A DNA stretch of 64,000 bases. Source: Deltaproteobacteria bacterium (lineage in GTDB: Bacteria; Desulfobacterota; G020345765). The translations under genes and the position numbers were made by a program. Each line of letters opens with the position of its first letter. The stretch's first letter is position 1. The stretch covers positions 1,130,972-1,194,971 of the forward strand of contig CP070770.1 in assembly GCA_020345765.1 (NCBI GenBank). Reading direction: 5' to 3'. Of the stretch, positions 4,762 to 55,412 are shown one piece after another. The notes below the pieces were generated by a model. That model made no database searches, was not told the origin of the DNA, and saw only the letters and a list, made by a program, of their open reading frames with translations.

Positions 4762-4800
4762 TAAATCAAATCCCAATGACCAAATCCCAAACTCCAAAGA
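4762..4800. repeat. AT-rich repeat family, partial (A-rich arm only)
   Basis: aaatcaaatcccaatgaccaaatcccaaactccaaag. Resembles the A-rich arms of the larger elements. Confidence 0.4.
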
Positions 4801-19182: not shown

Positions 19183-19396
19183 AAAAATCCTAAGCACTAA
19201 ATTAATAGTTAAAGAGTTAAGGGTGGAGGGAAATAACCAATAAACAAATCTCAATGGCCAAATAATAATCAATAACCAAGTTCCAATAACCAACATAGTT
19301 CTTGTCTTGAGGTTAGTTTGGTTATTAGTTATTGGAATTTGGAATTTATTTGATGTTTGGAATTTGGTGATTGGTGTTTAGAGGATTTAGGATTTC
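19183..19396. repeat. AT-rich long imperfect hairpin element
   Basis: The A-rich arm (aaatcctaagcactaaat...aataaccaagttccaataaccaa) pairs with the T/G-rich arm (ttggttattagttattggaatttgg...ttaggattt). Confidence 0.7.
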
Positions 19397-19444
19397 TCGT
19401 TGATATTCGGGTTTTATCATTTTAATTTAAAAATTTATTAAACG

Positions 19445-20014: not shown

Positions 20015-20038
20015 CTTCTCAAAAACAACCCAATATTT

Positions 20039-21040: not shown

Positions 21041-21113
21041 ATAACGACTCCTTACATTATTTTCCTTGTATTTTAAATAACAGCGGCCTGATTCACTTTT
21101 CAAGCTCTAAACC

Positions 21114-22355: not shown

Positions 22356-22396
22356 TGAGCTTTCCTTTCTCTTACTTACACTGTCCTAAGGGTTAG

Positions 22397-22939: not shown

Positions 22940-22952
22940 TGACCCTCCTTGA

Positions 22953-23285: not shown

Positions 23286-23337
23286 TATGAAAATATGTCA
23301 GAATTGCTTATTCTGTGAACGGGACAGATAGAATTCT

Positions 23338-23374
23338 CACCCCCTCCTTTTTCTTCTTCCATCAAGGGGGAGGA
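23338..23374. repeat. degenerate third copy of the REP-like element
   Basis: caccccctcc...cttcttcc-atcaa-gggggagga. The left arm has decayed. Confidence 0.5.
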
Positions 23375-23461
23375 AATTATTTTGGGTTTTTTTTATCTTT
23401 CAAGACTTATTTTATCTTATTCCATTCCTTCGGGTTTTTCAACTATTTAGGATAAAAACCT

Positions 23462-23490
23462 TTGACAATAACTGATAAATCTGTTAAGAG
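23462..23490 (+). promoter_or_regulatory. promoter-like element with conserved 16-mer CTGATAAATCTGTTAA
   Basis: TTGACA (23462-23467) then the 16-mer at 23472-23487. The same arrangement recurs at 60162-60187. Confidence 0.45.
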
Positions 23491-23527
23491 TGCGTGAGGG
23501 GATATTTCGATTCAGGAGCTATGATAA

Positions 23528-24808
23528 ATGGTAAATATCGGTTCCCAGTCGGTCGATAAAGAAAGTCCTCCGGGGCGTCCCTTAAGGATATGCCTGCTTA
23601 CCTACCGGGGCAACCCGACCTGTGGGGGGCAGGGAGTGTATATCAAGCACCTCAGCCTTGCTCTCAGCGACCTCGGCCACCAGGTCGATGTCATCTCCGG
23701 ACCGCCGTATCCGGAATTGGACGGGAATATCACCCTGCATAGGATGCCGGGCCTGGATCTTTACAATCCCGAGCATCTATTTAAAGTCAAAAGGGTTCGC
23801 GACCTGAGATCGCCGATCAATCAATTGGAATTTATCGGCATGTGCCTGGGTATCTTCCCGGAGCCCTTTACCTTCGGTCTGAGGGCCTTTAACTTTCTCC
23901 GCACCAAACTGCCAGATTATGATATTATCCACGACAACCAGTGCCTTTCCTACGGCATCTGGGGAATTTCACGCCTTGGCTTCCCCACGGTGGCAACCGT
24001 CCACCACCCGATTACCGTCGACCGGGATGTGGAACTTAAGGCAGTGAAATCCTGGTTCCGGAAATTGATGGTCAGGAGATGGTATTCTTTCTTAGGGATG
24101 CAGAAGTGGGTCCTACGCCGTTTCTCCCATATCATCACGGTCTCCGAAAGCTCGAAAAAGGATATCAGCAATGACTTCAAGGTTCCTCTCCATAAATTCC
24201 GGGTCGTCCCGAACGGTATCAATACCGATATCTTCCGTCCCCTTCCCCATATTAAACGGGCACAGAATCAGATCCTAACAACCAACAGCGCCGATACCCC
24301 CCTGAAGGGGCTTAGTTATCTCCTGGAAGCAGTCGCTTCCCTAAGAAAGAGCAGGGATATCAGGCTCACCGTGATCGGCACACCGAAGAAGAACGGGTTT
24401 ATCAAGCGCCTTATCCGGGAACTGGGGATCCAAGATCATGTAAAATTTACCGGGCGCATTGAACACGAGGAGTTCGCCCGTTATTATGCCGAAACCACCG
24501 TTGCCGTCATCCCCTCCCTCTACGAGGGATTCGGTCTGCCTGCCGGTGAGGCCATGGCCTGTGGCATTCCGGTTATCAGTACCGCCGGAGGAGCGCTGCC
24601 CGAGGTGGTAGGTGATGCGGGCATTATTGTCCCGCCGGCAGATAAACAGGCACTGGAGAAAGCCATCCTCTCCCTGCTAAACGACCCGGAAAGGTGTCAG
24701 CGACTAGGACAGGCTGGCCGGGAGCGGGTAAGGAACCTTTTTACCTGGAAGCACGCCGCCCAAAGGACAGTAGCGGTATACCAGGAGGCAATCGATGCTA
24801 ACCGTTGA
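23528..24808 (+). CDS. glycosyltransferase family 4 (GT-B, group 1)
   Basis: 426 aa. 'GGQGVYIKHLSLAL' N-terminal domain and 'EGFGLPAGEAMACGIPVIST' C-terminal GT1/GT4 signature. Confidence 0.9.
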   Translation: MVNIGSQSVDKESPPGRPLRICLLTYRGNPTCGGQGVYIKHLSLALSDLGHQVDVISGPPYPELDGNITLHRMPGLDLYNPEHLFKVKRVRDLRSPINQLEFIGMCLGIFPEPFTFGLRAFNFLRTKLPDYDIIHDNQCLSYGIWGISRLGFPTVATVHHPITVDRDVELKAVKSWFRKLMVRRWYSFLGMQKWVLRRFSHIITVSESSKKDISNDFKVPLHKFRVVPNGINTDIFRPLPHIKRAQNQILTTNSADTPLKGLSYLLEAVASLRKSRDIRLTVIGTPKKNGFIKRLIRELGIQDHVKFTGRIEHEEFARYYAETTVAVIPSLYEGFGLPAGEAMACGIPVISTAGGALPEVVGDAGIIVPPADKQALEKAILSLLNDPERCQRLGQAGRERVRNLFTWKHAAQRTVAVYQEAIDANR

Positions 24809-25499
24809 TTTCCAGAAGCTGGAGATAAAACCCGGCAGCCGTATCCTCGATGCCGGCTGCGGCGGCGGTCGCCACCTCTGTGAGGCATTTCGATCCCAGG
24901 ATGCGGACGTCGTGGGTATCGACCTGAATTGGGAAGATCTGTGTAAAGCAAAGTACAACTTAAACTCGATAAATAACGGGAATGACGGCCTGCGGACGGT
25001 CTCGATGGCCGATGTCACCACGTTACCGTTTAAAACGGGTATTTTCGATATGGTCATCTGCTCGGAGGTCCTCGAGCACATCCCGGAGAACCGTACCGCC
25101 ATTGCCGAGCTGGTCAGGGTCCTTAAGCCGGGAAAGAACCTAGTGATAAGCGTGCCGAGATTCCTGCCGGAGCGGATCTGCTGGGCAATCTCCGAGAGTT
25201 ACCGTAACGAACCCGGCGGGCATATCAGGATCTACCGGAAGAAGGAACTGCGAAGACTGCTGGAGAACGCCGGCACCCGCTGTTGGAGCATCCGCTATAA
25301 ACATGCCCTGCATGCCCCCTACTGGTGGCTCAAGTGCCTGGTCGGCCCCAAGAATGAAAATTCCCGGTTAGTAAACTGGTACAAGTGGTTTCTCGAACGG
25401 GATATCATCAAGCCCTCGCCTCTGACCCGGGCGCTTGATAAGATGCTGATCCCTTTCATCGCCAAGAGTATCGTCTTCTATCTAAAAAAAGGAATTTAA
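24795..25499 (+). CDS. class I SAM-dependent methyltransferase
   Basis: 234 aa. 'ILDAGCGGGRH' motif I, 'FDMVICSEVLEHI'. Overlaps the GT4 gene by 14 nt. Confidence 0.9.
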   Translation: MLTVDFQKLEIKPGSRILDAGCGGGRHLCEAFRSQDADVVGIDLNWEDLCKAKYNLNSINNGNDGLRTVSMADVTTLPFKTGIFDMVICSEVLEHIPENRTAIAELVRVLKPGKNLVISVPRFLPERICWAISESYRNEPGGHIRIYRKKELRRLLENAGTRCWSIRYKHALHAPYWWLKCLVGPKNENSRLVNWYKWFLERDIIKPSPLTRALDKMLIPFIAKSIVFYLKKGI

Positions 25500-25500
25500 A

Positions 25501-26616
25501 ATGGAACTGGATATCTCGCGGAATGTTGCCGAATCGCCCGTCGATGTTGACATTGAAGCAGTAGCGGAGTTTATTGCCGGGCTGCAGAAAAATGATGGGG
25601 AGATCCCCTGGTCCGAAGGGGGAAAGACCGACCCCTGGGATCATGTTGAAAGCGCTATGGGGCTCGGTGTCGCTGGGTACTTAAAAGAGGTGGAGCGGGC
25701 CTATGAGTGGATGTCACGGACCCAGCTCAAGGACGGCAGCTGGTGGGCATATTACCGGGACGGAGTCCCGGAGGACAAGACGAAGGATACCAACTTCTCA
25801 TCCTATATTGCCGTCGGGGTTTTCCACTATTACCTGCTCACCGATGATGTCGCCTTCCTCAAACACATGTGGCCAACCCTGAAGGCGGGGGTTGACTTTG
25901 CGGTCAGCCTCCAGGCCCCAACCGGCGAGATCTACTGGGCAAAAAACCGTGACGACATCGTGGATCCCATGGCCCTCCTGACGGGCAGTAGTTCCGTTTA
26001 CCTTAGTATCAAGTGTGCTCTGGTCATTGCCTTCCTCCTGGGAAAGAGACAACCCGCCTGGAAAAAGGCGCTTAAAAAATTAGAACATGCCCTCCGGAAC
26101 CGACCCGACCTTTTTAACACGACGAAGTCCCGCTACTCCCTGGACTGGTATTATCCCGTCCTCTGCGGTGCCGTTACCGGTATCGATGCCCGCCGGCGGA
26201 TCGAAAAATACTGGGATAATTTCGTGGTACCCGGGTGGGGGGTACGCTGTGTCTCCGACCGGCCCTGGGTAACCATGGCGGAAACCTCGGAGCTGGTGTT
26301 GACGCTGGCGGCCATTGAGGAATACCAGCAGGCGGAGACGATTTTCAGTTGGCTAAATGACAAGAAGTATGAGGACGGTTCCTACTGGATGGGTGTTACC
26401 TTCCCCGATTCGGTTATCTGGCCTGAGGAGAAAACATCGTGGACTGCGGCCGCGGTACTTCTTGCTCACGACGCCCTCCATGAGATAACGCCGGCATGCT
26501 CACTGTTCAGTCACAGTTTCTGGAGTACCCCGGAGATCCTTTCCCGTACAAGAGATCTGTCCGACGCGATCCGAAAAGAAAAGACCGACGAGATCCCCAT
26601 CAATTTCAATAGCTGA
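25501..26616 (+). CDS. alpha/alpha-toroid protein (prenyltransferase/terpene-cyclase-like or GH15-like)
   Basis: 371 aa. Repeated aromatic-rich 'DGSWW/DGSYW' helical-hairpin pattern. The family assignment is tentative. Confidence 0.6.
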   Translation: MELDISRNVAESPVDVDIEAVAEFIAGLQKNDGEIPWSEGGKTDPWDHVESAMGLGVAGYLKEVERAYEWMSRTQLKDGSWWAYYRDGVPEDKTKDTNFSSYIAVGVFHYYLLTDDVAFLKHMWPTLKAGVDFAVSLQAPTGEIYWAKNRDDIVDPMALLTGSSSVYLSIKCALVIAFLLGKRQPAWKKALKKLEHALRNRPDLFNTTKSRYSLDWYYPVLCGAVTGIDARRRIEKYWDNFVVPGWGVRCVSDRPWVTMAETSELVLTLAAIEEYQQAETIFSWLNDKKYEDGSYWMGVTFPDSVIWPEEKTSWTAAAVLLAHDALHEITPACSLFSHSFWSTPEILSRTRDLSDAIRKEKTDEIPINFNS

Positions 26617-26637
26617 AGCGGTAAGGAGTCTGTCACA

Positions 26638-27351
26638 TTGAAGAAAGACCATCGTCCTTACATAGTCAAGCACTTGAGCGCCCAATTCCAGAACTGGTAT
26701 GTAAACTATTTCCTCCGTCCCCAATTCGAACATCTTGGCAAAGAGTTCATCTTCGTCGGGTCCCGGCACATAGAGATAACCGGATGGCCGATTACGCTGG
26801 GGGACTACGCAAATGTCGTCGCTACTCCGGACCGGAAAGTCAGGCTGACCGTCTGGTCCAACCGGGAAGACCGGGGGCGTATCCGGCTCGGGGACTACTG
26901 TCTGATCTGCCCGGGTGTGAGGATCAGTTCTGCCAGTGAGATCGTCATCGGGGACAATTGTATGATGGCCCAGGGCGTATATATTACCGATTCGGACTGG
27001 CATGACATTTATGACCGCAGCGTTATCATCGGGGAGAAGTCGGCACCGATCAGGATAGGAAATAATGTCTGGTTAGGTGACAGCGTCATTGTGTGCAAGG
27101 GAGTTACTATCGGGGATAACAGCGTGATAGGGGCCGGGGCGGTTGTCGTCAAAGAGATCCCGCCCAATGTCGTCGCGGCCGGTAACCCCGCGGTCGTCGT
27201 GAAGCATCTCGATCCGGAAAGAGAGCTGAAAACACGTTCCGAGTGGTTTACAAAATTAGCCGTATTAGATGAAATGGACCGGAAAGTGCGCAAGAAAAAT
27301 ACGATCTTCGGGTGGCTCCGGTCAAAGGTTTTCCCCGTCAGAGGAGACTAG
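26638..27351 (+). CDS. hexapeptide-repeat (LbH) acyl/acetyltransferase
   Basis: 237 aa, TTG start. 'IGNNVWLGDSVIVCKGVTIGDNSVIGAGAVV' left-handed beta-helix repeats. Confidence 0.85.
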   Translation: MKKDHRPYIVKHLSAQFQNWYVNYFLRPQFEHLGKEFIFVGSRHIEITGWPITLGDYANVVATPDRKVRLTVWSNREDRGRIRLGDYCLICPGVRISSASEIVIGDNCMMAQGVYITDSDWHDIYDRSVIIGEKSAPIRIGNNVWLGDSVIVCKGVTIGDNSVIGAGAVVVKEIPPNVVAAGNPAVVVKHLDPERELKTRSEWFTKLAVLDEMDRKVRKKNTIFGWLRSKVFPVRGD

Positions 27352-27373
27352 GCAAAGGATATCATCCGAAATA

Positions 27374-27495
27374 ATGTTAAATGTCAAAGCTCAAAGTTCA
27401 AATGAAATCCAAAGTCCAAATGATAAAAAATTTGATATTTGGATTTTAACATTTGTCATTCATTTGTCATTTGGATTTTGGTATTTGAACTTTTC
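27374..27495. repeat. AT-rich long imperfect hairpin element
   Basis: aaatgtcaaagctcaaagttcaaatgaaatccaaagtccaaatga pairs with tcatttggattttggtatttgaacttt. About 45 nt is shared with the 37664-37710 arm. Confidence 0.7.
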
Positions 27496-27562
27496 CCAGT
27501 CGAAACCTTTCATGTAATTCGGTTGTTCACACATAATCTGAGATTATCTTAGAGGCCTAATA

Positions 27563-29155
27563 ATGAGAGTTTTGATTGCTGCTCCCCCCTATCCCCTTGA
27601 GGAATCACCCGCACCGCCACTGGGTATCTCCTATGCCGCCGCTGCCTTCGAGGCGGCCGGGGCGGAAGTCAAGGTGATTGATTATATCGTATCCCGCTAT
27701 ACCCGGGAAAAATTGAAAAAGGAACTCGATACCTTCAGCCCGGATATCGTCGGGACCAACTCGGTCACGATGAACTTCCCGGCAGCCGTTGATATCATCC
27801 AAACTGCCAAAAGACATAATCCTTCCCTGATAACCATGATGGGTGGTCCCCATGTGTCGTTCGACGCCGTAAATACCCTGCAGAAATATCCCGAGATCGA
27901 TCTGCTCATGATCGGTGAGGGCGAGGGAACCATTATGGAGCTGGTGCCTTGCATCTCGGACCATCGCGATTGGGCAGGCATCAAGGGAATTACCTTCCGC
28001 CGGAACGGTGAGTTTGTGGTTACCGAACAAAGAGGGCTGATCGATGACCTTGATTCCCTCCCCTTACCGGCCCGGCACCTGCTACCCCTGTCCCGCTATC
28101 TTGCCCTCGGCTTTCCGGTCAGCATTATCACCAGCCGTGGATGTCCGCATTCATGCATCTTCTGCCTGGGAAGGCGTATGCTGGGAAACGGGAGCCGTTA
28201 CCGGAAACCCTCCCTCGTTGTCGACGAGATCGAACAGGTCCTCTCCTACGGCTTTCCCTGGATCAATATTACCGATGATCTTTTTACCTCCAGCAAGCCA
28301 AGGGTCCGCGAGATCTGCGAAGAGATCCGCCGCCGGAGACTTAATTTCTCCTGGAGCGCTTTTTCGCGGTGCAATAATGTTGACCGGGAGACCTTCGAAC
28401 TCATGCACAGTGCGGGATGCAACAGCGTCAGCTTCGGTATCGAATCCGGTAACCCGGAAATGCTTAAACGAATCAGGAAGGGGATAACCCCCGATCTTGC
28501 AAGGAAGGCGATCAGCGCCTGCCGGGAGGCAGGGATCACTCCCCATGCATCATTTATGGTAGGCCTCCCCGGGGAATCACCGGAAACCCTCAGGAATACC
28601 GCGGAGCTGGCAAAGAGCCTCGATATTCTGCACGGATATCATTTTCTGGCACCATTCCCCGGCACTACCGTGCGGGAGGAGATCGATAAATACGACCTTG
28701 AGATCCTGACCGACGACTGGGCCCAATATGATGCAAACCGCGCCATCGTGAGAACATCAAAGCTTTTCCCTGAAGACCTGGAGCGATTCGTCGCCGAGTA
28801 TGAAAATGAAATGAACGAGGCCTGGGAGGATCTGGTTCAGGGCTATCGGGAAAAGACCAATCTGCCGGAAGACGACCTCAAGGTAGAGGCACATTTCCGG
28901 CTTCAGCTCGTCTACCGGCTGCTGTCCGAGGATATAATTGAAACCTGTGGCTCTTTTCAGGTAAACAATCCCGGGTCTAACCCCGGTGACCCGGTCGATA
29001 TTCTCTGCCGGAAGATTGCGGAGGCAACCGGTTTCGATACCACCTTGGTTAATAAAACGATCAAAAGGTTTGTTGACTCCGGTTACCTCAAGTCAAGATC
29101 GGCAGAAGAAAATATTGTCTGGTACTGGACCCACAACCACCAGGTCGACTCTTAG
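27563..29155 (+). CDS. B12-binding-domain radical SAM enzyme
   Basis: 530 aa. N-terminal cobalamin-type domain. 'SRGCPHSCIFCLG' CxxxCxxC. Confidence 0.9.
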   Translation: MRVLIAAPPYPLEESPAPPLGISYAAAAFEAAGAEVKVIDYIVSRYTREKLKKELDTFSPDIVGTNSVTMNFPAAVDIIQTAKRHNPSLITMMGGPHVSFDAVNTLQKYPEIDLLMIGEGEGTIMELVPCISDHRDWAGIKGITFRRNGEFVVTEQRGLIDDLDSLPLPARHLLPLSRYLALGFPVSIITSRGCPHSCIFCLGRRMLGNGSRYRKPSLVVDEIEQVLSYGFPWINITDDLFTSSKPRVREICEEIRRRRLNFSWSAFSRCNNVDRETFELMHSAGCNSVSFGIESGNPEMLKRIRKGITPDLARKAISACREAGITPHASFMVGLPGESPETLRNTAELAKSLDILHGYHFLAPFPGTTVREEIDKYDLEILTDDWAQYDANRAIVRTSKLFPEDLERFVAEYENEMNEAWEDLVQGYREKTNLPEDDLKVEAHFRLQLVYRLLSEDIIETCGSFQVNNPGSNPGDPVDILCRKIAEATGFDTTLVNKTIKRFVDSGYLKSRSAEENIVWYWTHNHQVDS

Positions 29156-29160
29156 GGCCT

Positions 29161-29200
29161 CCGGCAGAAATAAGCGGCTGCGGACTTTCTCTTTTTCTAG
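29161..29200 (+). terminator. weak candidate intrinsic terminator after the B12-radical-SAM gene
   Basis: ccg(g)cag-N10-ctgcgg imperfect 6-bp stem, followed by the T-rich ctttctctttttct. Confidence 0.3.
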
Positions 29201-29317
29201 GCAAAGTACGGATCTATAGAATATTTAGGAGATTTCTGTCCCTATCTTCTTGATTTTTTAAGATAAAAATAGGATAATCAAAAAGGTGGTTGATTCTTAA
29301 ATTGAAGTGAGAAGCTG

Positions 29318-29599
29318 ATGGCAAAGAGGAAAAAAGGGACTAATAGATCTCGTCGACCAACCGGGAGAGCAACCTTTGATGAGATGGGATCTGAGAACAT
29401 CAATAAGGTTAAGGAGAAAGTTAGTGATTATAAGATTAGAAGCCCAATACAGGAAGCAATTGATTTCGGAATTGATGTTACCTTGTTATATGACACTCTC
29501 ACCTTAACTCCAACTGAAAGAATAGAATTGCACCAAAGAATGCTGGAAACAGCAGAAGAATTGAGAAAAGCCGGTAAAAGAAAGAATGCTAGATCTTAA
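29318..29599 (+). CDS. small hypothetical protein (putative partner of the downstream nucleotidyltransferase-fold protein)
   Basis: 93 aa. Basic N-terminus, 'LTLTPTERIELHQRMLE' C-terminal helix. Overlaps the next gene by 14 nt. Confidence 0.5.
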   Translation: MAKRKKGTNRSRRPTGRATFDEMGSENINKVKEKVSDYKIRSPIQEAIDFGIDVTLLYDTLTLTPTERIELHQRMLETAEELRKAGKRKNARS

Positions 29600-30086
29600 G
29601 GAAATATTGACAACATTAAGAAATAATAATGTTCATTTCGTCCTGATCGGCGGTCAGGCAGCTGTTATTCAGGGATCGGCATATTTGACTCGAGATGTAG
29701 ATATCTGTTATGCAAGAGATAAAGAAAATTTAGAGAATATTGTAAGAGCCCTTGCGCCTTTTCACCCATACCTAAGAGGCGCACCCAAGGACTTACCTTT
29801 TATTTTTGATGCCAAAACATTACATTTAGGGCTGAATTTTACATTTTCAACAGATATCGGAGATATTGATTTGATCGGAGAAGTCAAAGGTATCGGCAAT
29901 TATAACGACGTTCTAAACTACTCCGAGACCTTAGAAATTTACGAAATGCCCTGTGATGTTCTAAAAATAGAGGGGCTGATAAGGTCAAAAAAAGCAGTTG
30001 GGCGTCAAAAAGACCAGATTCACGTCAAAGAATTAGAGGCGCTCCGGGAAATACGTAAACAGCATGAGGAAAAGAAAAATATCTGA
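29586..30086 (+). CDS. nucleotidyltransferase-fold (Pol-beta-like) protein
   Basis: 166 aa. 'FVLIGGQAAVIQGSAYLTRDVDICY' (G-G/S ... D-x-D pattern). Confidence 0.62.
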   Translation: MLDLKEILTTLRNNNVHFVLIGGQAAVIQGSAYLTRDVDICYARDKENLENIVRALAPFHPYLRGAPKDLPFIFDAKTLHLGLNFTFSTDIGDIDLIGEVKGIGNYNDVLNYSETLEIYEMPCDVLKIEGLIRSKKAVGRQKDQIHVKELEALREIRKQHEEKKNI

Positions 30087-30115
30087 AAATAAGATTAACT
30101 TAAAAGGATACCGGA

Positions 30116-30781
30116 TCAGCCGAGCTCGCGCCACCTTTTTCTTGCCGTCTCCGTTATGTCCCCACCCGCAACCTTTTTTAGTATCCCTAGCGTATTGACC
30201 ATGGGCAACTCCTGAAAGAGACCGGAGGAGAGGGCCAGGTTATAAACGCAGTACGGGGCCTGTCCCCCCTGGGCAGGGTCGGAGAAAATATCATGGATCG
30301 CAAGGAACCCGCCGGGGATGAGATGGGGGGTCCAGCTGTTATAATCCGTAAAGACCGCCTCAAATGTATGACCGCCGTCGATGAAGACCATGCCGAGTGG
30401 AGTTGCCCAGGATCGGGCAACTACTTCTGACTTAGAGACAATCATGACCACCGTGTTTTCCAGTAATAGATCATTGATGGTTTTCCTGAATATCCCGAAG
30501 GTATCGATCAGTCCCGTCTCTTTATCGAGAAGCTCCGGATCAAAGTATTCCTGCCCGGGCTGTTGCTCTTCCGAGCCCCGGTGATGGTCGATGGAGAAAA
30601 GGACCGCGCCGTTCTCCTTACAGCCCATTCCCAGATAGGCGGATGATTTTCCGCAGTAACTGCCAATTTCCAGACAGGGGCCGAGCCTGTTTGCTTCTTT
30701 CGCCAGCTCATAAAGGCGAATGGCCTCGTCATCTTCCAGGAAACCCTTAAAAGACCTCGATTTCACATCCTCAATATCCAT
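30116..30781 (-). CDS. class I SAM-dependent methyltransferase
   Basis: 221 aa. 'CLEIGSYCGKSS' motif I and 'FIDGGHTFEAV...GGFLAIHD'. Confidence 0.8.
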   Translation of the reverse strand: MDIEDVKSRSFKGFLEDDEAIRLYELAKEANRLGPCLEIGSYCGKSSAYLGMGCKENGAVLFSIDHHRGSEEQQPGQEYFDPELLDKETGLIDTFGIFRKTINDLLLENTVVMIVSKSEVVARSWATPLGMVFIDGGHTFEAVFTDYNSWTPHLIPGGFLAIHDIFSDPAQGGQAPYCVYNLALSSGLFQELPMVNTLGILKKVAGGDITETARKRWRELG

Positions 30782-31011
30782 ACCCGCTTAGCCTTTCTTT
30801 ATCTAAGTTTTTTAAATCGAGATTTATAGACTACCAATTTCCGGGAATAGTCGTACAACAGAGATGGAAATGAATTTTCTTTAATTGCAGGAATATCTAT
30901 TTTCGATAATTAGTATGGGCAATCTCGGCACTTCGTCAGGCTCTGACCCAGTTTTTACTTGATTAATGCTCACTAACCATCTTGGTAATTCCGAGAGATT
31001 GCAGTGGTTTT

Positions 31012-31662
31012 TTATCTTCCTGAAGGTTCCTCGTAGTAAGGACCCGGAGGGAAACCAGACCCAGGATATTTAAGAGCTTTTTTATTCGCCTCTCTGGCTA
31101 AGGGGATATAATTCGGTTTTGCTTTTTCTACGGCCGCAGTAACTGCCGCAGCAATAAGATCTCCAAGTAAACTGCCGGTATTCGTTGATTGTGGTTCATA
31201 CGTCATTATTGCCCTTTCTTCCCAGAGGGTTTCACCCGTTTTCCCGTCTTTTATGATATAAGTTAGCTCCACCGTCACTATGGTTGACAAAACCAAATAT
31301 TGTGCATCCCAACGCTCGATAATGATATAGAGAACAGCATCGGCCCCGAAGAGCTCACAGAGCTTAGACGTCGGTGCGTTATGTACCAGATCTGCATCAG
31401 ACAAACCGTCATCTTCCAAAACACGTTTAACTAAGTTTACCGGGAATACATAATAACCACGTTCCGCTACCGGAATCGGTGTCGTAGTAAGGAAATAATC
31501 AGGGGCTGTGACTTCAACACTTCTATTTACAACCGGAACTATTAAAATTGAACGCGGACTGGCAGCATTGAATTTCGTATAATCCTTATCCTTATGAGTC
31601 ACGGCACATCCTGTGGCAATCGAAAGCGCTAAAACTATCAGAAATATTTTGGGATTCGCCAT
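31012..31662 (-). CDS. lipoprotein, DUF799/GNA1162-like
   Basis: 216 aa. 'LALSIATGC' lipobox. 'ILIVPVVNRS...' fold pattern. Last gene of the CsgG-like operon. Confidence 0.72.
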   Translation of the reverse strand: MANPKIFLIVLALSIATGCAVTHKDKDYTKFNAASPRSILIVPVVNRSVEVTAPDYFLTTTPIPVAERGYYVFPVNLVKRVLEDDGLSDADLVHNAPTSKLCELFGADAVLYIIIERWDAQYLVLSTIVTVELTYIIKDGKTGETLWEERAIMTYEPQSTNTGSLLGDLIAAAVTAAVEKAKPNYIPLAREANKKALKYPGSGFPPGPYYEEPSGR

Positions 31663-31663
31663 A

Positions 31664-32059
31664 CTATTCCTCAGATTTATTATCTTCGGGCGGTAAACTT
31701 TCCCTCGCTCTCTCGCTAAGAAACTTGGCGTTTCTAATCATTTTCGCCATAAGGATACGAGATTCCGGCCATTTATCGTATTCTTTTTGAAAGTAAGCTA
31801 CTGCTTCCGTAAAATTACCCTCCTCATACTGAGCATATCCATACTCCGCATATATTCCAGGCGGCACTCTACCTGACTCCTCAGCTTTTAGAATCGTTTC
31901 TTCCAGCGCCTCAATAAACTTAGCTCTTTCTGTTGGATTCTTATAATATTCGTATAAAGTGTTGTCATAATTATTCCAGACATAAAGATTTTGGGCACAG
32001 GCCGGTAATGTAAATGTAACCAGAACTAAAAAAATTAATATTATCCTCAAATCCTGCAC
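31664..32059 (-). CDS. lipoprotein, DUF4810-like
   Basis: 131 aa. 'TFTLPAC' lipobox. 'VPPGIYAEYGYAQYEEGNFTEAVAYFQKE...WPES'. Confidence 0.68.
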   Translation of the reverse strand: MQDLRIILIFLVLVTFTLPACAQNLYVWNNYDNTLYEYYKNPTERAKFIEALEETILKAEESGRVPPGIYAEYGYAQYEEGNFTEAVAYFQKEYDKWPESRILMAKMIRNAKFLSERARESLPPEDNKSEE

Positions 32060-32071
32060 TAATAGCCCGAA

Positions 32072-32377
32072 TCAATGACCTACAATAATCGTTTTTAATT
32101 CACTTTCAACGAATATCTCTTGCTTGTGGATTACCTCACCGCTTACATCTCTTATTACTATTAAGTGTATGCCTGGCTCAATCTTTAAAATATTGGGGTG
32201 GCCGTTGTAACTATTAGCCATTCCAATCCTAAGACCGTCAACATACAGCTCAGCTCCTTCAGGAGCCCCTTCTACTGCAATGCTGGGACGCGTATCCACC
32301 GTCTTGACAGTTGTCGCCGGCATAGTACAGCTTACTATTATAGTTAATAATACCAACAAGAGTAATAACTTCTTCAT
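32072..32377 (-). CDS. small lipoprotein with PEGA-like domain
   Basis: 101 aa. 'TIIVSC' lipobox. 'AELYVDGLRIG...LKIEPGIHLIVIRD'. Confidence 0.6.
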   Translation of the reverse strand: MKKLLLLLVLLTIIVSCTMPATTVKTVDTRPSIAVEGAPEGAELYVDGLRIGMANSYNGHPNILKIEPGIHLIVIRDVSGEVIHKQEIFVESELKTIIVGH

Positions 32378-33351
32378 TTCTCACCCACCTCAGTTACATA
32401 AAGTTTTTTTATCTCTGCTTCGGGTATGTTGCCCGCAGTCAATTCGCAGACCGAGCCCTCATTAATTTCGGAATCGCCGAACAAACTGACAACTCGCAAT
32501 GTTGCTATCTGTTTTGGAGGAAGCTCTATCGGAAAACCGGTTCTCTTACTATCAACAGTCTGACCTGGTTCCATAACCTGTAATACATCACCAACTTCTA
32601 ATCCTTGTCTTTCTCCCCCACTTATATATATTTGCTTGTCTTGTATCTCTAATATCTCCGTCCGCCAGGGGCGTTCTTCAAGGGTTGAAATTAACTTATC
32701 AATCATATCAGATATAGCCGCGGCTATGGCACGGTCATTTAAGGTTGCATCGTAAGCGGCATAGCTTCCAAATCCAGCGATTGCGCCCGATTCCGTACTT
32801 GCCTCCCCAGCACCAACTGCAGAGAAAAATGCATGTCCAGTATGTACATCCACGAGGCGAATGTCAACTTTAGCATGAGCCGATTGTACTTTCGTCTTAC
32901 TAAGAAATCCACGCTTGCCGCCTACTGATCTGCCAAACTCAGTAACAGACCCCACAATCAATACGTCAACTCCTATTAATTTTGAGTCACCGGCAAGATT
33001 TTGCTCACGCTCAATTTTTTTCAGGTCCGGTCGCTCAAAAACCAGGAATTTTCCAGATTTAATTAATCGACTAGCAAGCATGTCAGAGGCTTGTTTACCG
33101 ATGCGATCCAGGTCTTCGTCACTCATTAACGAACGTCCGTAGTTGGTCTCATTAGTGAACCTGGCAATAGCAATTTTTCGTTTATAACTTTTAGCTTCGG
33201 GAATGCTTAGCTCTTTTTGGGCTGCTATTTGTTCGGGTTTCGATACCGGGGCTTCAACTTCAACCGGTTTTTCCGAAACAGTTGCACATCCAGCAAGAAT
33301 TGCTAACGGCACGATGATTACTAACTTACAGTTTACCATTTTAGACCTCAT
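32374..33351 (-). CDS. CsgG/HfaB-family lipoprotein (curli-type secretion channel homologue) with C-terminal extension
   Basis: 325 aa. 'LAILAGC' lipobox. 'KIAIARFTNETNYGR...ASRLIKSGKFLVFERPDLKKIEREQ' CsgG core. About 90 extra C-terminal residues. Confidence 0.85.
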   Translation of the reverse strand: MRSKMVNCKLVIIVPLAILAGCATVSEKPVEVEAPVSKPEQIAAQKELSIPEAKSYKRKIAIARFTNETNYGRSLMSDEDLDRIGKQASDMLASRLIKSGKFLVFERPDLKKIEREQNLAGDSKLIGVDVLIVGSVTEFGRSVGGKRGFLSKTKVQSAHAKVDIRLVDVHTGHAFFSAVGAGEASTESGAIAGFGSYAAYDATLNDRAIAAAISDMIDKLISTLEERPWRTEILEIQDKQIYISGGERQGLEVGDVLQVMEPGQTVDSKRTGFPIELPPKQIATLRVVSLFGDSEINEGSVCELTAGNIPEAEIKKLYVTEVGEK

Positions 33352-33551
33352 AACATTTCAGATTTCTTAAGTTAAGAACGGTGGTGAGCTAATATAATCT
33401 CTAATTATTTTTAAACCAATATGGTCTGTCTGTCAAGCTATTTTGATGGGAAGAGATCCCGTACTATTAGAGGTATATATGGGGTAAGTAATTCAGACAA
33501 TCTTGCCGTTATGTATTATGTGGTTGAGTAAAGTTCCGACTTCTATTATCC

Positions 33552-33800
33552 TTAAATATGATCCGGTTTGTATCCATTCTCAGCCGGGCCGCCTAATTTT
33601 TCCATTGCTGCTTTGATGTATCTGCTTATCTCTTCCGAGAGTTGAATAACCTTCCTTAAATTCTCCGCTACCTCCTCAAGCCCGGCCTCCTCTACTTTCG
33701 CCAGCCATTTTCTGTCTTCTTCGATGTGTTCCCTGTTATGCTTAAGCCAATGGGACATTATTATCCTTAATCTCTTCAGGTCTTCCTCTGGGGTAGCCAT
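33552..33800 (-). CDS. hypothetical helical protein
   Basis: 82 aa. Its start abuts the stop of the upstream CooT-like gene. No family recognised. Confidence 0.55.
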   Translation of the reverse strand: MATPEEDLKRLRIIMSHWLKHNREHIEEDRKWLAKVEEAGLEEVAENLRKVIQLSEEISRYIKAAMEKLGGPAENGYKPDHI

Positions 33801-34001
33801 CTATTCATCCCCCCTGTTCCTCAGGACCAAAAAATTTTCGGTAAGATTGACCTCCTTGATGAAATAACCTTCCAACTCCTTCTCTTCGCCGAAGATCGTG
33901 TTAATCCTGATAGTTCCGTTATCGTCAATAACCTTGGCGACCTCTTCCGCCACAAGATCACTTTCGTCCCTTTTTTTCAGATATACCCTGGAGAGACACA
34001 T
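33801..34001 (-). CDS. CooT-like small nickel-binding protein
   Basis: 66 aa. Begins 'MC'. Size and the '...TIFGEE...G..IKEVNL' pattern match CooT of CO-dehydrogenase maturation. Confidence 0.62.
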   Translation of the reverse strand: MCLSRVYLKKRDESDLVAEEVAKVIDDNGTIRINTIFGEEKELEGYFIKEVNLTENFLVLRNRGDE

Positions 34002-34030
34002 TTTCGCCTCCTACTTCAAATGAATTGCCA

Positions 34031-34378
34031 TCATTTATATGCCGTAACTTTCTCCTCCACTGCCTTTTCCGGCATGGCGCCGATAATACCGTCCACGTTC
34101 TCCCCATTTTTAAAGATAAGCAGAGTGGGAATAGACCTGATCCCGAACCGAGCTGCAACATCCTGGCTTTCATCCACATTCAGCTTACCGAAGACGATCT
34201 CTCCTTTATACTTGTTGGCCAGTTTATCCACTATCGGAGCAATCATCCGGCAGGGAACACACCACTCGGCCCAGCAGTCAACCACTAGAAGAGGATATTT
34301 AGTCAGTGCCTGGTCGAAGCACTTACTGTCTAAACTAATCGGGCTATCCGGTTTGTCCAAAAGCTCTTTTGTTCCCAT
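34031..34378 (-). CDS. trxA: thioredoxin
   Basis: 115 aa. 'VVDCWAEWCVPCRMIAP' active site (CVPC variant), 'FGIRSIPTLLIFKNGE'. Confidence 0.9.
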   Translation of the reverse strand: MGTKELLDKPDSPISLDSKCFDQALTKYPLLVVDCWAEWCVPCRMIAPIVDKLANKYKGEIVFGKLNVDESQDVAARFGIRSIPTLLIFKNGENVDGIIGAMPEKAVEEKVTAYK

Positions 34379-34409
34379 GCTTTCCTCCTCTTCAAATAAT
34401 CACCTTATG

Positions 34410-34646
34410 TTACTGAAATACCTCAACATCACTTAGCTCAAGCAGCTTAATCCCCCCAGCCTGGTTCAGAGGGGTATAGATCTGAAAATGCCCTGATTCG
34501 AAGGACAGCCCCCGGAAGATCCCCAGGGAATCCAGGCAGAAACCGTCACTGAGTAAACCTATTAACCTACCTATTAATACACCTTGAGAGATGATATGTA
34601 AAGAGCTTATTCCGAGGCGGGAAGAATCTATCCTCTGTTCAAACAT
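34410..34646 (-). CDS. possible small hypothetical protein
   Basis: 78 aa from the ATG. It exactly fills the gap between the SPL-like gene and trx on the same strand, with aggaaaagg upstream. No recognisable motif. Confidence 0.3.
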   Translation of the reverse strand: MFEQRIDSSRLGISSLHIISQGVLIGRLIGLLSDGFCLDSLGIFRGLSFESGHFQIYTPLNQAGGIKLLELSDVEVFQ

Positions 34647-34667
34647 CAAACCTTTTCCTGGGATCAG

Positions 34668-35753
34668 CTATCCGAATAGAAAATCGAGGCTTCTTTCGGT
34701 ATCCGGGGTATACCCAAACACCCTCTCCCACACCTCTTTGGTTTCCATGCAGAGATAAACCGGGATCTTCGGACAGAAGCCCTTGATCCGATCAAGCAGT
34801 TTCCGGTAAGCCTCTACCCGGATGTGCTTGAGATAGCGCAGCTTCCCGTCGGCGCAAGGGACAAACTCGCCGCAGAGGATCTTGCTTCGGGGGAACCTTC
34901 TCCTGATAATCCGCTTCAGCAAGGGATAGTAGCGGAATCCTCCCAGGCTGATCCAGCTTACCCGGAGGGGGTCGACCACGGCAAATAGTTGATCGACAAC
35001 CCCCCGGTACTCTTTCTCCCAATCCGGGTAGATAATAATCGGGTCGAAATGAAAGCCCAATTGGTATCCGGCATCCTGACACCTCCGGGCGGCCTTCAAC
35101 CTCCGGGCAAGGGATGGGGTTTCTGCCTCGTCCTCGTCGATCACCCGTTGGGGACTGAGAGACCAGGAGACAATCACCCGGTCTCCGTGATCCAGTCCGA
35201 TAAGATTATCGACCAGATCGGTCTTGGTCTTCAGCTCCAGCACGGCATTTTTTTGCCGGGCAAAGAAGGGGACGATGTCTCTGGTGAACCCGGTAATGTT
35301 ATCGAGGACCAGGCTGTCGGCCAGCTCCCCGGTTCCGAGACGATAACTGCGCTCCCGGTTGGCATCCAAAAACCGTGTAATCTCATTTAACATATCCCCG
35401 GTATTGGCAAAAACCCTCATCAGGGGATTATTCTCCAGGTATCCCTGGAGAGCACAGTAGCTGCATTCCAGGGGACAGTTCGTGGCAGCATTGATTACAT
35501 AATAATTGCAGCAGATATGGATCTTGGTGCCCGGGCACTTTTTTACGAATGTGCCCGGGTGATTTGTTATCAGAAGTAGCTTCTTTCCGTCGCTAATGGG
35601 ATCCTGCGCTTTCGCTACCCTGCCCAACGCATCCTGAGGGTCTTCGATATATTCTACTGGCACCCCGGGAAGGTTCCCCAGGATCACCCGGGTCAGCTCC
35701 TTATCCTGCGCCTCTTTCTCGATAAAAATAGTCTCCGGACGATATTGTTCCAT
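34668..35753 (-). CDS. spore-photoproduct-lyase-family radical SAM enzyme
   Basis: 361 aa. 'KCPGTKIHICCNYYVINAATNCPLECSYCALQGY' matches the SplB-type architecture and carries a CxxxCxxC motif. Confidence 0.85.
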   Translation of the reverse strand: MEQYRPETIFIEKEAQDKELTRVILGNLPGVPVEYIEDPQDALGRVAKAQDPISDGKKLLLITNHPGTFVKKCPGTKIHICCNYYVINAATNCPLECSYCALQGYLENNPLMRVFANTGDMLNEITRFLDANRERSYRLGTGELADSLVLDNITGFTRDIVPFFARQKNAVLELKTKTDLVDNLIGLDHGDRVIVSWSLSPQRVIDEDEAETPSLARRLKAARRCQDAGYQLGFHFDPIIIYPDWEKEYRGVVDQLFAVVDPLRVSWISLGGFRYYPLLKRIIRRRFPRSKILCGEFVPCADGKLRYLKHIRVEAYRKLLDRIKGFCPKIPVYLCMETKEVWERVFGYTPDTERSLDFLFG

Positions 35754-35768
35754 AAATACTGACCTGAC

Positions 35769-36749
35769 TCAAATTATCTTCAAAATTTCTTTTATTTCCG
35801 GGGACTTAGAGAGTTCTAACAACCTCTCGGCCACCTTCTTAAGTTTCTTAGGATCACGGAATTGAAACTCTACCTTGAGCTCGTCCCCCTCAAAGTAGGG
35901 AGGGGGTGAAATCTTTAGCTCAGGAGGAAGATGCATTTGCTTTAATCCCTCCTCCACCTGTGCCTCAATCCCGGTCAACTGCGGATACCTCTTTTTTCTG
36001 AGGATATACCTGATTAACTCGACCTTCCTCGGCCGGGCGATCCCCTCATCATCGAGAACCGCCTCAATCTCACGATCACCAAGAAGTCCCTTAATCGGTA
36101 CCCCGTCCCGTTGCGAGGTCTCTTCCAGAAAATTAAGGAATTCCATTATCCGGTTCACGCCGAGATTCAGCCGGGAGATCAGCCGGAAGCTTGCCTGCCT
36201 GTCCTCCGGAGACAGTGTAAGTAACCGGGAGGGAACCCGAACCGGAAGATCCCTTTGGACGACATATTCCTTGATCTCCTCTTCCAGTTCAATCACTGGT
36301 AGATACTGGTGGAAAATTGCCTCCCCGGCCTCCAGGCCCAAAAGGGGGAGATACTCCCCGATAATCAGTGACTGGTCAAGACCAAATTGATTATGGAGCT
36401 TGCTTAAAACCATCGATCTCTCGATGTCGTTATAGTCACGGTGGCCCAGGTTTTCAAACAACCCCAACAAGAATCCCCCTTGATCACTGAGCTCCGCTTC
36501 GGGGTAAACCATGGCCTCGATTTTTTCAAAACCCAGCTCCCGGCAGGCCAATGCCCTCCGCAGGCCGCAGACTACCTGGTATTTTCCCGTTTTTTCCAGT
36601 TGCCGGACAATCAACGGCTGGATCAGGCCAATCCGGGCGATCGATTCCTTGATTCTCTCGCACTCAAGCGGATAGGTGGCGGAAAAGATCCTGTCTTCGA
36701 AATCGATCCTCTCGGTTTCCACCTTTTCCGGGTTTCTTCTCTTTAGCAT
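35769..36749 (-). CDS. ParB/Srx N-terminal-domain protein
   Basis: 326 aa. 'GLIQPLIVRQ...YQVVCGLRRALACRELG' ParB box. Uncharacterised helical C-terminal half. Confidence 0.8.
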   Translation of the reverse strand: MLKRRNPEKVETERIDFEDRIFSATYPLECERIKESIARIGLIQPLIVRQLEKTGKYQVVCGLRRALACRELGFEKIEAMVYPEAELSDQGGFLLGLFENLGHRDYNDIERSMVLSKLHNQFGLDQSLIIGEYLPLLGLEAGEAIFHQYLPVIELEEEIKEYVVQRDLPVRVPSRLLTLSPEDRQASFRLISRLNLGVNRIMEFLNFLEETSQRDGVPIKGLLGDREIEAVLDDEGIARPRKVELIRYILRKKRYPQLTGIEAQVEEGLKQMHLPPELKISPPPYFEGDELKVEFQFRDPKKLKKVAERLLELSKSPEIKEILKII

Positions 36750-36755
36750 AACCTC

Positions 36756-37586
36756 CTAATCCCCCTCGTATTTAAGCGGTAGTTCGGCAAACCGTTCCCC
36801 TTCCTCTTTTTTACCCCTGCGGTAGCAGCCCCGGGCAAGTATCTCGCACTTTTTCCTTAATACCCTTAATGTCTGCTCTTTTTGTTCCGCAGTCAGCTTG
36901 CCGTCATCCAGCAACTTCTCCAGGGCCCTCACCCGGAAGCGGTCCCTCCCCCAATATTTTTCGGAAAGCTGGTCAGGATGTCCCCCCCGCTTTATAATCA
37001 GCGGTTTATCGATCAGGCATACCGGTGTGGTGGAAGCGATTCGGAGCCAGAGGTCATAGTCCTCACAGACCGGCAGCTCTTCGTCGAAATCCCCGACCTC
37101 CCGGAGAAGCTCTTTCCGGATCATGACCGAAGAAGGGCTGATCGTGCAAAGCTCCAGTGCCCGCGCGAAGACCCAGCCCGAGTCCTTGCGGTGCTTCTTG
37201 CCGGGATTCACCCTGACTCCCCGGCGGATCCAGATCTCGTTGGTATAGCAGATCCGGGTTTCCGGATTGCTCTCCATGAAATCAACCTGACAGCGAAGCT
37301 TCTCTTTATCCCAGAGGTCATCCGAGTCCAGAAAGGTTATCAGCTCTGCCCGGGACAGTCTGATCCCCCGGTTCCGGGCCGCCGAGGCCCCCTTATTCTT
37401 CTGATAGAAGTAACGGAGCCGATCCGGGTATCGCCGGGCAATCCCGGCGGTATCATCCTCGGAACCGTCATCGACCACGATCAGCTCAAAATCCCGGTAG
37501 CTCTGGTTAAGAACCGATTCCACCGCCTCAATTAAGAAATGATACCGGTTATATGTCGGGATGATAACACTGACCCTGGGGACCAT
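36756..37586 (-). CDS. glycosyltransferase family 2
   Basis: 276 aa. 'VSVIIPTYNR...ELIVVDDGSEDDT...FLDSDD' GT-A signatures. Confidence 0.9.
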   Translation of the reverse strand: MVPRVSVIIPTYNRYHFLIEAVESVLNQSYRDFELIVVDDGSEDDTAGIARRYPDRLRYFYQKNKGASAARNRGIRLSRAELITFLDSDDLWDKEKLRCQVDFMESNPETRICYTNEIWIRRGVRVNPGKKHRKDSGWVFARALELCTISPSSVMIRKELLREVGDFDEELPVCEDYDLWLRIASTTPVCLIDKPLIIKRGGHPDQLSEKYWGRDRFRVRALEKLLDDGKLTAEQKEQTLRVLRKKCEILARGCYRRGKKEEGERFAELPLKYEGD

Positions 37587-37660
37587 GACAGGCTCTCCAC
37601 GAAATACAGTGGATAGATAGAATTCATCTACAATATTATCATTGTCATAGGAAGGTGAGC

Positions 37661-37920
37661 TAATGTCAAATACTAAAGCTCAAAGTTCAAACAAAGTCTA
37701 AAGTTCAAATGACAAAATTTATAAATAAATCCTAAGCACTAAATCCTAAATACAAAACATTCCTTTCTACTTCGCTCAAGACAGGGTTTTGAACATTTAA
37801 CATTAGGATTTGGGATTTGTTTGGGATTTAGGATTTGGAATTTAGTATTTCTCAGTTGATATTTGGCATTTAGTCATTTTTCATTCATTTGTAATTTGGA
37901 TTTTGACATTTGGATTTAAT
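37661..37920. repeat. AT-rich long imperfect hairpin element (largest copy)
   Basis: aatgtcaaa...aaagttcaaatga...aaatcctaagcactaaatcctaaat pairs with atttaggatttgg...tttgacatttggattt. The arms are built from ~7-8-nt GGATTTn/nAAATCC units. Confidence 0.72.
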
Positions 37921-38047
37921 TGTTTACCTACAACAATTCGGGATGAGCCTCATAACATTTTAGCCCAATAATTTATGGAATAATAAACTAAGGGGGGTAG
38001 GCAAGCCTTTTGTGAAGAATGCATAAGAAGGAGGCCGGGATAAAATG

Positions 38048-38431
38048 CTATCTTTGTTCCTCAACAAACCTTTCGTATTCTCCGAGGTCTAAAAGAGAAT
38101 CGAGCTCACCTGGCTTAGTCAGCTCAACCTCAATCAGCCAGCCCTCACCGTAAGGGTCATCGTTAACGATCGAAGGGTTAGTTTCCAGTTCCTCGTTGAC
38201 CCCGATAATAGTACCGCTTACCGGTGCGATTATCTCCGAAACGGTTTTGGATGATTCAACCTCCCCAAACGGCTCGTCTTTCTCTATCGTATCTCCTACT
38301 ATCGGGAGATCAATAAATAGAATTTCTCCCAGCTCCGACTGGGCATAATCGCTAATACCTATCTTACCTTTTTTCGCACTTACTTTGACCCAAATATGAT
38401 CTTCGTTGAATTTCAGATCCTCGGACTCCAT
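38048..38431 (-). CDS. gcvH: glycine cleavage system protein H
   Basis: 127 aa. 'FGEVESSKTVSEIIAPVSG' lipoyl-lysine motif. Confidence 0.93.
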   Translation of the reverse strand: MESEDLKFNEDHIWVKVSAKKGKIGISDYAQSELGEILFIDLPIVGDTIEKDEPFGEVESSKTVSEIIAPVSGTIIGVNEELETNPSIVNDDPYGEGWLIEVELTKPGELDSLLDLGEYERFVEEQR

Positions 38432-38526
38432 GATCCTCCCCTTAAATTTTAATAATAATCCAAATCTAACCGGATCTGACCTTGTTTATCGCAACAGAAA
38501 AGTTTTAAACTATGAAAAAATACTTG

Positions 38527-45809: not shown

Positions 45810-45903
45810 CCATTTAGTCATTTGAACTTTGGATTTTATTTGGTATTTGGGTTTTGTAATTTGGTATTTATTTAGGATTTAGTGCTTCGTGCTTAGGATT
45901 TGT
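45810..45903. repeat. AT-rich repeat family, T/G-rich arm only
   Basis: catttagtcatttgaactttggattttatttgg...tttaggatttagtgcttcgtgcttaggattt. Shares 'catttagtcattt' and the reverse complement of 'aaatcctaagcac' with the other copies. Confidence 0.6.
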
Positions 45904-55236: not shown

Positions 55237-55275
55237 TAATCACCTCAGATTATGCGTAAGCACCCTAATTAGAGT

Positions 55276-55383
55276 AAAAATCAAAAATCAAATATTAAAA
55301 TTACAAAGCAAAATTTAAAAATACTAAGACATTTTGAATTTTAATATGTCGTTTTGATTTTTGCATTTTGATATTTGATATTA
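55276..55383. repeat. AT-rich hairpin element between the MFP and RND genes
   Basis: aaaaatcaaaaatcaaatattaaaattacaaa pairs with ttttgaattttaatatgtcgttttgattttt. Confidence 0.65.
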
Positions 55384-55412
55384 ATGTAACTACTTTTCTA
55401 TATTGAACGGCA

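Follow-up and report, generated by a model that had tools for sequence, protein, structure and literature searches.

What are the long AT-rich hairpins that recur between genes in this deltaproteobacterial genome, and how did they come to be there? The question is raised by positions 37661-37920 of the window, by which we mean the whole 64-kb stretch of DNA that was analysed. The genome behind it (G000; 3.417 Mb) is 85% complete and stitched by 368 spacers of 100 N. It was compared with a single genome of a sister species from the same genus (G001), a fragmented bin like G000, orthologous genes being about 80-88% identical between the two.

The initial annotation had noted related AT-rich elements at six intergenic sites and had interpreted them as a MITE/REP-like family or as a lineage-specific RNA hairpin. 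All six sites do hold such elements, and the sequence blocks quoted for them lie where they had been placed. We consider it likely, with a probability of roughly 0.8, that the hairpins are non-autonomous, gene-less derivatives of small selfish cassettes which carry a gene of the PF05635/TIGR02436 family, named '23S rRNA intervening-sequence protein' in Pfam and 'four helix bundle protein' in NCBIfam.

Element families and heptamer arms

A BLAST comparison of the window elements with G000 revealed separate dispersed families with sharp ends. What had been taken for a single family comprises at least four distinct ones with defined ends across the six sites, here called A to D:

4762..4800, plus strand: solo A-rich arm of the AAATCCCAATGACCAAATCCCAAA type, with many 30-nt matches elsewhere in G001
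19184..19394, plus strand: family C element of about 211 nt; left end AAATCCTAAGCAC; sharp ends in the alignment
27372..27495, plus strand: complete family A hairpin of about 122 nt; fold z -6.4
37591..37660, plus strand: outer left module, which moves with the element in several G001 copies; BLAST hits begin at query positions 1591-1592 (window position 37591)
37661..37717, plus strand: family A 5' arm, (NNNCAAA)n starting TAATGTCAAA; 82% identical to 27372-27428; pairs with 37860-37919 in the minimum-energy fold
37727..37850, plus strand: family B miniature occupying the family A loop; left end AAATCCTAAGCAC, right end ...GGAATTTAGTATTT
37860..37919, plus strand: 3' arm of family A, composed of (TTTGNNN)n and ending TTTGACATTTGGATTTAA; agrees with a consensus built from 28 family A copies
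37921..37953, plus strand: outer right module, TTTACCYACAAYAATYCRGGATGAGCC; seen again on the right-hand side of family A copies, of cassette L163 and of cassette L166
45810-45868, plus strand: family A-like T-rich solo arm, the 5' part of 45810..45903
45871-45899, minus strand: family B left end adjoining the solo arm (genome position 1176872)
55246..55389, plus strand: family D hairpin, located between the genes for the efflux adaptor and the pump; fold z -3.1

The locus at 37661-37920 is a composite in which a family B element is nested in the loop of a family A hairpin. Two of the similarities originally reported for it were recovered: the 18-mer AAATCCTAAGCACTAAAT occurs at 19185-19202 and 37727-37744, and the sites at 27374 and 37661 share the 82% match between 27372-27428 and 37661-37717. 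Its outer left module contains a promoter-like -10 hexamer as well as the ribosome-binding site of a glycosyltransferase gene on the minus strand, and is also found beside cassettes L163 and L166 of the sister species. The G001 BLAST hits to the locus reach query positions 1950-1954, in the right module.

Characteristic sizes are about 122 nt for family A, 125-140 nt for family B and 211 nt for family C. The complete hairpin at 27372..27495 gave more than 40 BLAST hits with 72-93% identity on other G001 contigs, and has full-length copies in G000. About 28 family B left ends were found in G000 within one mismatch, family C copies in this genome are 94, 87, 81, 78 and 78% identical over query positions 15-225, and family D has G001 copies with up to 93% identity. 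After merging of BLAST hits and heptamer chains, the total for G000 is about 110 loci, 86% of them outside the ORF map that underlies all gene context statistics given here (a crude, greedy map covering 89% of G000).

Several arm lineages (A to D) are co-resident in this genome and nest in one another's loops; a further example, near genome position 1,561,900, is a C element located in an A loop. Insertion into existing hairpin loops as a rule was considered and rejected, as the flank duplexes of 28 family A copies gave -6.5 kcal/mol, compared with -6.9 kcal/mol after permutation. Nesting in the loops of other elements is frequent all the same. A small GC-rich hairpin module (CCTGTCCTGAGC ... 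CGAAGG, at window positions 37759-37786), with about 84 core matches in G000, is found within B-element loops and surrounds some A copies as well (flanks of the G001 loci L183 and L187-L190), so that three or four levels of nesting can be distinguished.

The arms are built from tandem degenerate heptamers, arranged as (NNNCAAA)n in the 5' arm followed by (TTTGNNN)n in the 3' arm, and it is this degenerate heptamer, rather than GGATTT as first proposed, that represents the repeat unit. Sequence identity at a lag of 7 nt is 0.52-0.59 in the six window elements (0.42-0.55 at a lag of 14 nt), compared with 0.27 in 928 other intergenic regions of G000. Chains of at least three TTTG or CAAA words at 6-8 nt spacing number 64 and 61, respectively, in G000, while the permuted words GTTT, AAAC, TTGT, ACAA, TGTT and AACA gave only 0-4 each in the same search. 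Both comparisons go well beyond what AT bias would produce. A tandem 7-nt periodicity of the STRR type is present; the units are mixed and the arms mirrored, however, unlike in descriptions of STRR arrays. The STRR2 unit TT(G/T)GTCA fits the TTTGNNN unit.

Where both arm types were detected in G000, the A-rich arm comes first at 16 loci and second at none, and looser two-unit patterns yielded 17-38 matches per gap class in the A-then-T order and none in the reverse order. That this order is universal was rejected, although it is absolute in G000: on putative viral contigs, 23 A-then-T stretches were accompanied by 6 reversed ones, which makes arm order a lineage trait and not a rule. One of the reversed contigs also has a PF05635 gene.

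Folding of individual loci, evaluated as z against dinucleotide shuffles, produced long imperfect hairpins at four of the six window sites, namely at 37655-37925 (-66.3 kcal/mol, z -4.9), 27365-27500 (-41.6 kcal/mol, z -6.4), 55265-55390 (z -3.1) and 19170-19405 (z -2.1). Of 96 loci folded throughout G000, 41 were no more stable than their shuffles. An 82-aa ORF at 27269-27517 is a mere translation of the repeat and exemplifies the spurious ORF calls which such elements yield during annotation.

Heptamer repeats might have grown in place by replication slippage, as in cyanobacterial STRR arrays, which would make the elements simple and immobile. The 7-nt period is compatible with this, as are the arm lengths, which differ between copies, and heptamers are reported to be the commonest long simple-sequence repeat class in bacteria, for which slippage was proposed (Mrazek 2007, as cited in PMC4679880). 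We nevertheless regard this origin as extremely unlikely. Unrelated loci share a non-repetitive order of units over 120-210 nt with sharp ends, identity is, for example, 94% for a stretch of 214 nt in G000 and 93% for one of 136 nt when the species are compared, and empty and filled orthologous sites differ by a whole element. Slippage as the sole mechanism is already contradicted by these observations, but it may have lengthened arms after insertion.

Cassettes carrying a PF05635 gene

The full cassette form, which was found in relatives and in metagenomes and not in G000, has a PF05635/TIGR02436 gene between complementary heptamer arms. Genes scoring over the PF05635 cut-off number 6 in G001 and 5, 3 and 4 in three further genomes (G008, G012 and G039). 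Most of the 17 genes that were inspected have inverted heptamer arms on either side, and the heptamer words vary by cassette. L163 (61 bits) and L159 (64 bits) exceed the PF05635 cut-off of 33.8 bits, and both score about 78 bits to TIGR02436; the protein of metagenome contig L265 reaches 53 bits for PF05635.

The arm families of the window recur on such cassettes. In G001, L163 and L166 have family B arms, with the ORF starting inside the A-rich arm (MTKIQNTKHYDLEERT...), and the miniature at 37727..37850 matches both of their ends. Cassette L159 from the same genome has family D arms, and its adjacent hairpin matches the family D element of the window at 81% over 118 nt. Family A arms flank PF05635 genes in the metagenome contigs L265 and L343, and in L265 the gene is preceded by an arm like that at 37661..37717. 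For family C the similarity is weak (76% over 82 nt) and concerns the inner arms of the element and the arms of L160, a cassette from another family of the phylum (G012). In real cassettes, the reading frame of the PF05635 protein can be extended N-terminally into the A-rich arm (L265: MSNVKAQSSNKIQNPNVQIYDLEE). In L159 (1849-1966) and L343 (about 3265-3465), a complete two-arm hairpin follows the gene instead of a single right arm, which suggests tandem or nested forms.

How a cassette loses its gene can be seen at an orthologous site. L154 in G001 is an intact cassette, while the corresponding site in G000 (1989560-1989830) lacks 295 nt of the gene; both arms remain there, together with 26 nt from the 3' end and about 30 nt from the 5' end of the gene. 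Remnants of coding sequence are also preserved elsewhere. In the family B copy at 473000-473210 of G000, a segment matching the left arm and initial codons of L163 (97%, 72 nt) is fused to the right arm of this cassette (88%), and the G001 orthologue of the 37661 element retains YDLEERTA codons after its A arm. A small lipoprotein-like gene (MSKKINLVIVGIASIVLFGC...) lies beside the decayed cassette in G000 (G000:C1, about 1989395-1989660) and is absent at the orthologous site of G001.

Recent insertions are represented by L159 (547 nt) and L169 (508 nt), at whose positions the G000 spacers are just 1 nt and 17 nt long; each cassette fits exactly between a stop codon and the ribosome-binding site or start codon that follows. 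L163 and L166, which are composites, are located at the start codon of the downstream gene, where a short duplication restores the start codon. When filled and empty sites are compared, 0-3 nt are duplicated for L159, 4 nt for L166 and an ambiguous 9 to 29 nt for L163, while L169 replaces the 17-nt spacer. No target-site duplication is visible in six family C copies, and none is consistent overall.

The following course of events emerges from these data. The full form has a gene for a four-helix bundle of about 120 residues, placed between complementary heptamer arms and starting in the A-rich 5' arm. Such cassettes enter tiny spacers between genes, as the filled and empty sites show, and internal deletion of the gene leaves the two arms as a long imperfect hairpin, as shown by the L154 site. 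The arms later decay, as is seen from the many loci that fold poorly and from the loss of one arm at an orthologous copy.

The MITE-like part of the original interpretation, a dispersed family, is borne out by defined ends, many copies in both species, nesting, occupancy differences and an origin by internal deletion. In being short, non-coding and numerous, with terminal inverted repeats, the elements fit the description of MITEs; a fixed-length target-site duplication and a transposase-encoding parent, which are also characteristic of MITEs, were not found among the copies and loci examined. The elements could be classical MITEs derived from an insertion sequence with a DDE transposase, the PF05635 gene being a frequent passenger. 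Terminal inverted arms, small size, nesting and high copy number would all be compatible with this, as would composites that move together with the outer modules (37591-37660 and 37921-37953). We consider it highly improbable for several reasons: PF05635 is the only gene found between matching arms at the loci examined, none of which has a transposase in this position; pairing of left and right ends at a distance of 1-9 kb in G000 yielded no candidate; and the target-site duplications are inconsistent. To our knowledge, no transposition or transposase activity has been attributed to PF05635 proteins.

A cassette-type PF05635 gene or pseudogene was not detected by tblastn in G000, an assembly that is 85% complete, and the miniatures of this genome are without a visible parent or helper there. 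Its sole PF05635 hit, a weak one, is the bAvd protein of a diversity-generating retroelement, encoded between an FGE-sulfatase-fold gene and a reverse transcriptase gene. This retroelement (G000:C1:2047497-2049973; L156 400-2876, minus strand) is canonical, with an FGE-sulfatase-fold target gene, bAvd (71 bits) and reverse transcriptase (88 bits).

The second part of the MITE/REP-like designation did not hold up. REP or REPIN elements that are moved in trans by a RAYT (Y1/HUH) transposase resemble the hairpins in size, shape and intergenic placement, with REP doublets as the closest parallel, and PF01797 hits occur in each of the genomes G000, G001, G008, G012 and G039. The only RAYT of G000 is the following:

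about G000:C1:1843720-1844394 (L150 1432-2106): RAYT-like Y1 transposase (224 aa), whose match to NF047646 does not reach the cut-off

The gene is bordered on both sides by TAGGGACAGCGCCCGTTTT in inverted orientation, and not by heptamer arms. This GC-rich repeat represents a REP family of its own, with about 46 copies in the genome. Furthermore, the arms themselves do not form short palindromes with a conserved tetranucleotide at the 5' end, and the parent form carries PF05635 instead of a RAYT. It is therefore extremely improbable that a RAYT moves the hairpins, and we return to PF05635 cassettes as their source.

Gene context and turnover between sister species

Copies of families A, B and D number dozens in G001, with 72-93% identity. 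Some sites are common to both species. The composite at 37661-37920 is found at the orthologous site of G001 as well, where most of the right A arm is missing, and the solo arm at 4762-4800 is also shared, the G001 segment aligning straight through at 83%. At other sites, orthologous gaps are occupied by different families:

gap between a HEAT-repeat gene and plsY (upstream of plsY): family C in G000, family A in G001
gap before a B12/radical-SAM gene: family A in G000, family B in G001
gap between the efflux adaptor and pump genes: family D in G000, family B in G001

These comparisons show that there has been turnover of families between the sister species and that elements are reduced to solo arms.

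An entirely different explanation is that the hairpins are signals kept by the host at gene boundaries, where they would serve as terminators, insulators, mRNA stabilisers or processing sites. The elements do lie in spacers that are probably transcribed, including the efflux adaptor/pump gap, and in tandem spacers those of families B and C are co-oriented with the host genes in 13 cases versus 3, a small sample based on a crude gene map. The TTGACA words at the arm ends face outward, and a promoter-like site with 10 of 12 matches leads from the left arm of the composite toward the glycosyltransferase gene. Co-orientation and outward TTGACA words may hint at a regulatory role. The promoter-like site (37669-37641, minus strand) is the best match of the region, with TTGACA in the left arm and GACAAT 17 nt on in the outer module, and points at the glycosyltransferase gene at 36756-37586.

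Against a host signal, no terminator-like stem with a T-run overlaps 19184-19394, 27372-27495 or 37661-37919 in a scan of 19000-38500. The claim that each copy sits at a gene or operon boundary has to be modified, since elements occur in any intergenic spacer and also inside operons; the numbers for tandem, convergent and divergent gaps (61/15/12) resemble the background (942/197/267). Orthologous gaps hold another family or a one-armed copy, and the loci that are no more stable than shuffles (41 of 96) also speak against it. In 21 family A copies the covariation term is -0.15, with almost no compensatory change, and a search of the 64-kb window against Rfam gave 0 matches at the gathering threshold. 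There is no sign of host selection on structure or position of the elements. We conclude that maintenance as host signals is very unlikely, and the lineage-specific RNA hairpin, terminator or stabiliser originally considered is further contradicted by the occurrence of the elements in many phyla.

RNase III excises stem-bounded intervening sequences carrying a PF05635 ORF from 23S rRNA (PMC4990558), and a PF05635 ORF has also been recorded in rRNA insertions of CPR bacteria (PMC11270868). By analogy with these intervening sequences, the long stems described here are probably substrates of RNase III when transcribed. The stem of an element in an operon would form double-stranded RNA, and cutting by RNase III would sever the transcript at the element, making the insertion tolerable. 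The gene for RNase III (rnc) is present in G000. A heptamer arm was not found in the 23S gene of G039, and the 23S genes of G000 and G001 are unassembled. Binding of CspB-type cold-shock proteins to T-rich heptamers, with one protein per unit, has been reviewed (PMC4679880); that it might be linked to the period of 7 nt is offered purely as an idea.

Distribution and relation to known systems

A scan of species genomes for stretches in which three A-units are followed, after 30-60 nt, by three T-units gave at least 119 of them. The phyla among the matches listed include Acidobacteriota, Planctomycetota, many CPR lineages, Gammaproteobacteria-labelled MAGs, Bacteroidota, Verrucomicrobiota, Chloroflexota, Nitrospirota, Thermodesulfobacteriota, Omnitrophota and one cyanobacterium. 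HIP1 (GCGATCGC) has 0 occurrences in the 64-kb window, which argues against a cyanobacterial origin of this DNA. Family A (27372-27495) matches over its full length, at 72-80%, loci in MAGs from CPR, Gammaproteobacteria and Thermodesulfobacteriota, on contigs whose genes are not close to those of G000. Since periodic low-complexity sequence inflates BLAST significance, we regard homology of family A across phyla as likely and not as proven. In one MAG labelled Gammaproteobacteria (L031), a cassette and its gene-less twin are found on the same contig.

An association between hairpins and cassette genes was also observed within the phylum, in a sample of 40 genomes that each represent a different family except for the sister species. 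All 8 genomes with at least 10 hits carry PF05635. Hits are lacking in 11 of the 12 genomes that do not have PF05635, and the 3 hits in the twelfth represent one simple tandem array. The hypergeometric probability of this co-occurrence, computed by hand, is about 0.014, a value that treats related genomes as if they were independent.

Among the systems most closely resembling the one described here are the intervening sequences in 23S rRNA with an S23p/PF05635 ORF, known from Coxiella burnetii, Leptospira and Xanthomonas (PMC4990558). These have the same protein family between complementary termini that form a long stem, a sporadic and seemingly horizontal spread, short forms without an ORF, and ORF decay; they have also been considered selfish DNA, and their mobility is likewise unexplained. 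The elements of the present study differ in being located between protein-coding genes and not in an rRNA helix, in having degenerate heptamer arms of 40-60 nt where the intervening sequence has a plain 28-bp stem, and in reaching about 100 mostly gene-less copies per genome, with excision by RNase III suggested by analogy only.

Bacterial MITEs (Correia/NEMIS, ERIC, RUP, Nezha) are also short, non-coding, palindromic, intergenic, nested and polymorphic between relatives, and originate from a longer gene-carrying element via internal deletion. They differ from our elements, in which the parent gene is no known transposase, target-site duplications are inconsistent and the arms are periodic. 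REP/REPIN sequences with their RAYT are likewise abundant hairpins of about 100 nt, located between genes and passed on with the genome, although the RAYT found here belongs with a different repeat and a heptamer arm by itself does not constitute a short palindrome. The heptameric repeats described as cyanobacterial STRR and as TAACTGA repeats of Beggiatoaceae, Cyanobacteria and Bacteroidetes (PMC4679880) have in common the 7-nt period, the intergenic location and a patchy spread that suggests transfer. Those are mostly direct arrays of a single unit, whereas the elements here have ordered, mixed units, two mirrored, family-specific arms and a link to cassettes.

The class is present in many bacterial phyla and barely described. 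In the accessible parts of the sparse literature that names the PF05635 protein family, no mention was found of dispersed heptamer-armed copies. New here are the deletion at an orthologous site, the clean empty and filled sites of the sister species, and the assignment of four co-resident families to cassette lineages. A more far-reaching interpretation, which we put forward tentatively and consider rather doubtful, is that heptamer-armed cassettes and their miniatures constitute a pan-bacterial mobile class with undescribed mobility, possibly involving an Avd-like pentameric protein and a nucleic-acid hairpin intermediate. Such elements would survive in operons and rRNA via cutting by RNase III, as a counterpart of harmless intron-like passengers, and some copies may have been co-opted as operon punctuation or outward promoters.

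The link to PF05635 cassettes provides a concrete handle on the origin of rRNA intervening sequences and the role of their ORF, and points to a mobility mechanism that can be tested with cloned cassettes. In many uncultured bacteria, an appreciable part of the intergenic DNA consists of such elements, which also fragment assemblies: in G000, 19 of the 368 N-spacers are no more than 250 nt away from a heptamer cluster, indicating that these repeats break the assembly as well. A second hairpin repeat in the window, at 127-165, 1226-1264 and 23339-23376, is GC-rich and consists of TCCTCCCCCATCAAGGGGGAGGA with ACCCCC flanks; its core has about 32 matches genome-wide, and copies abut several N-spacers.
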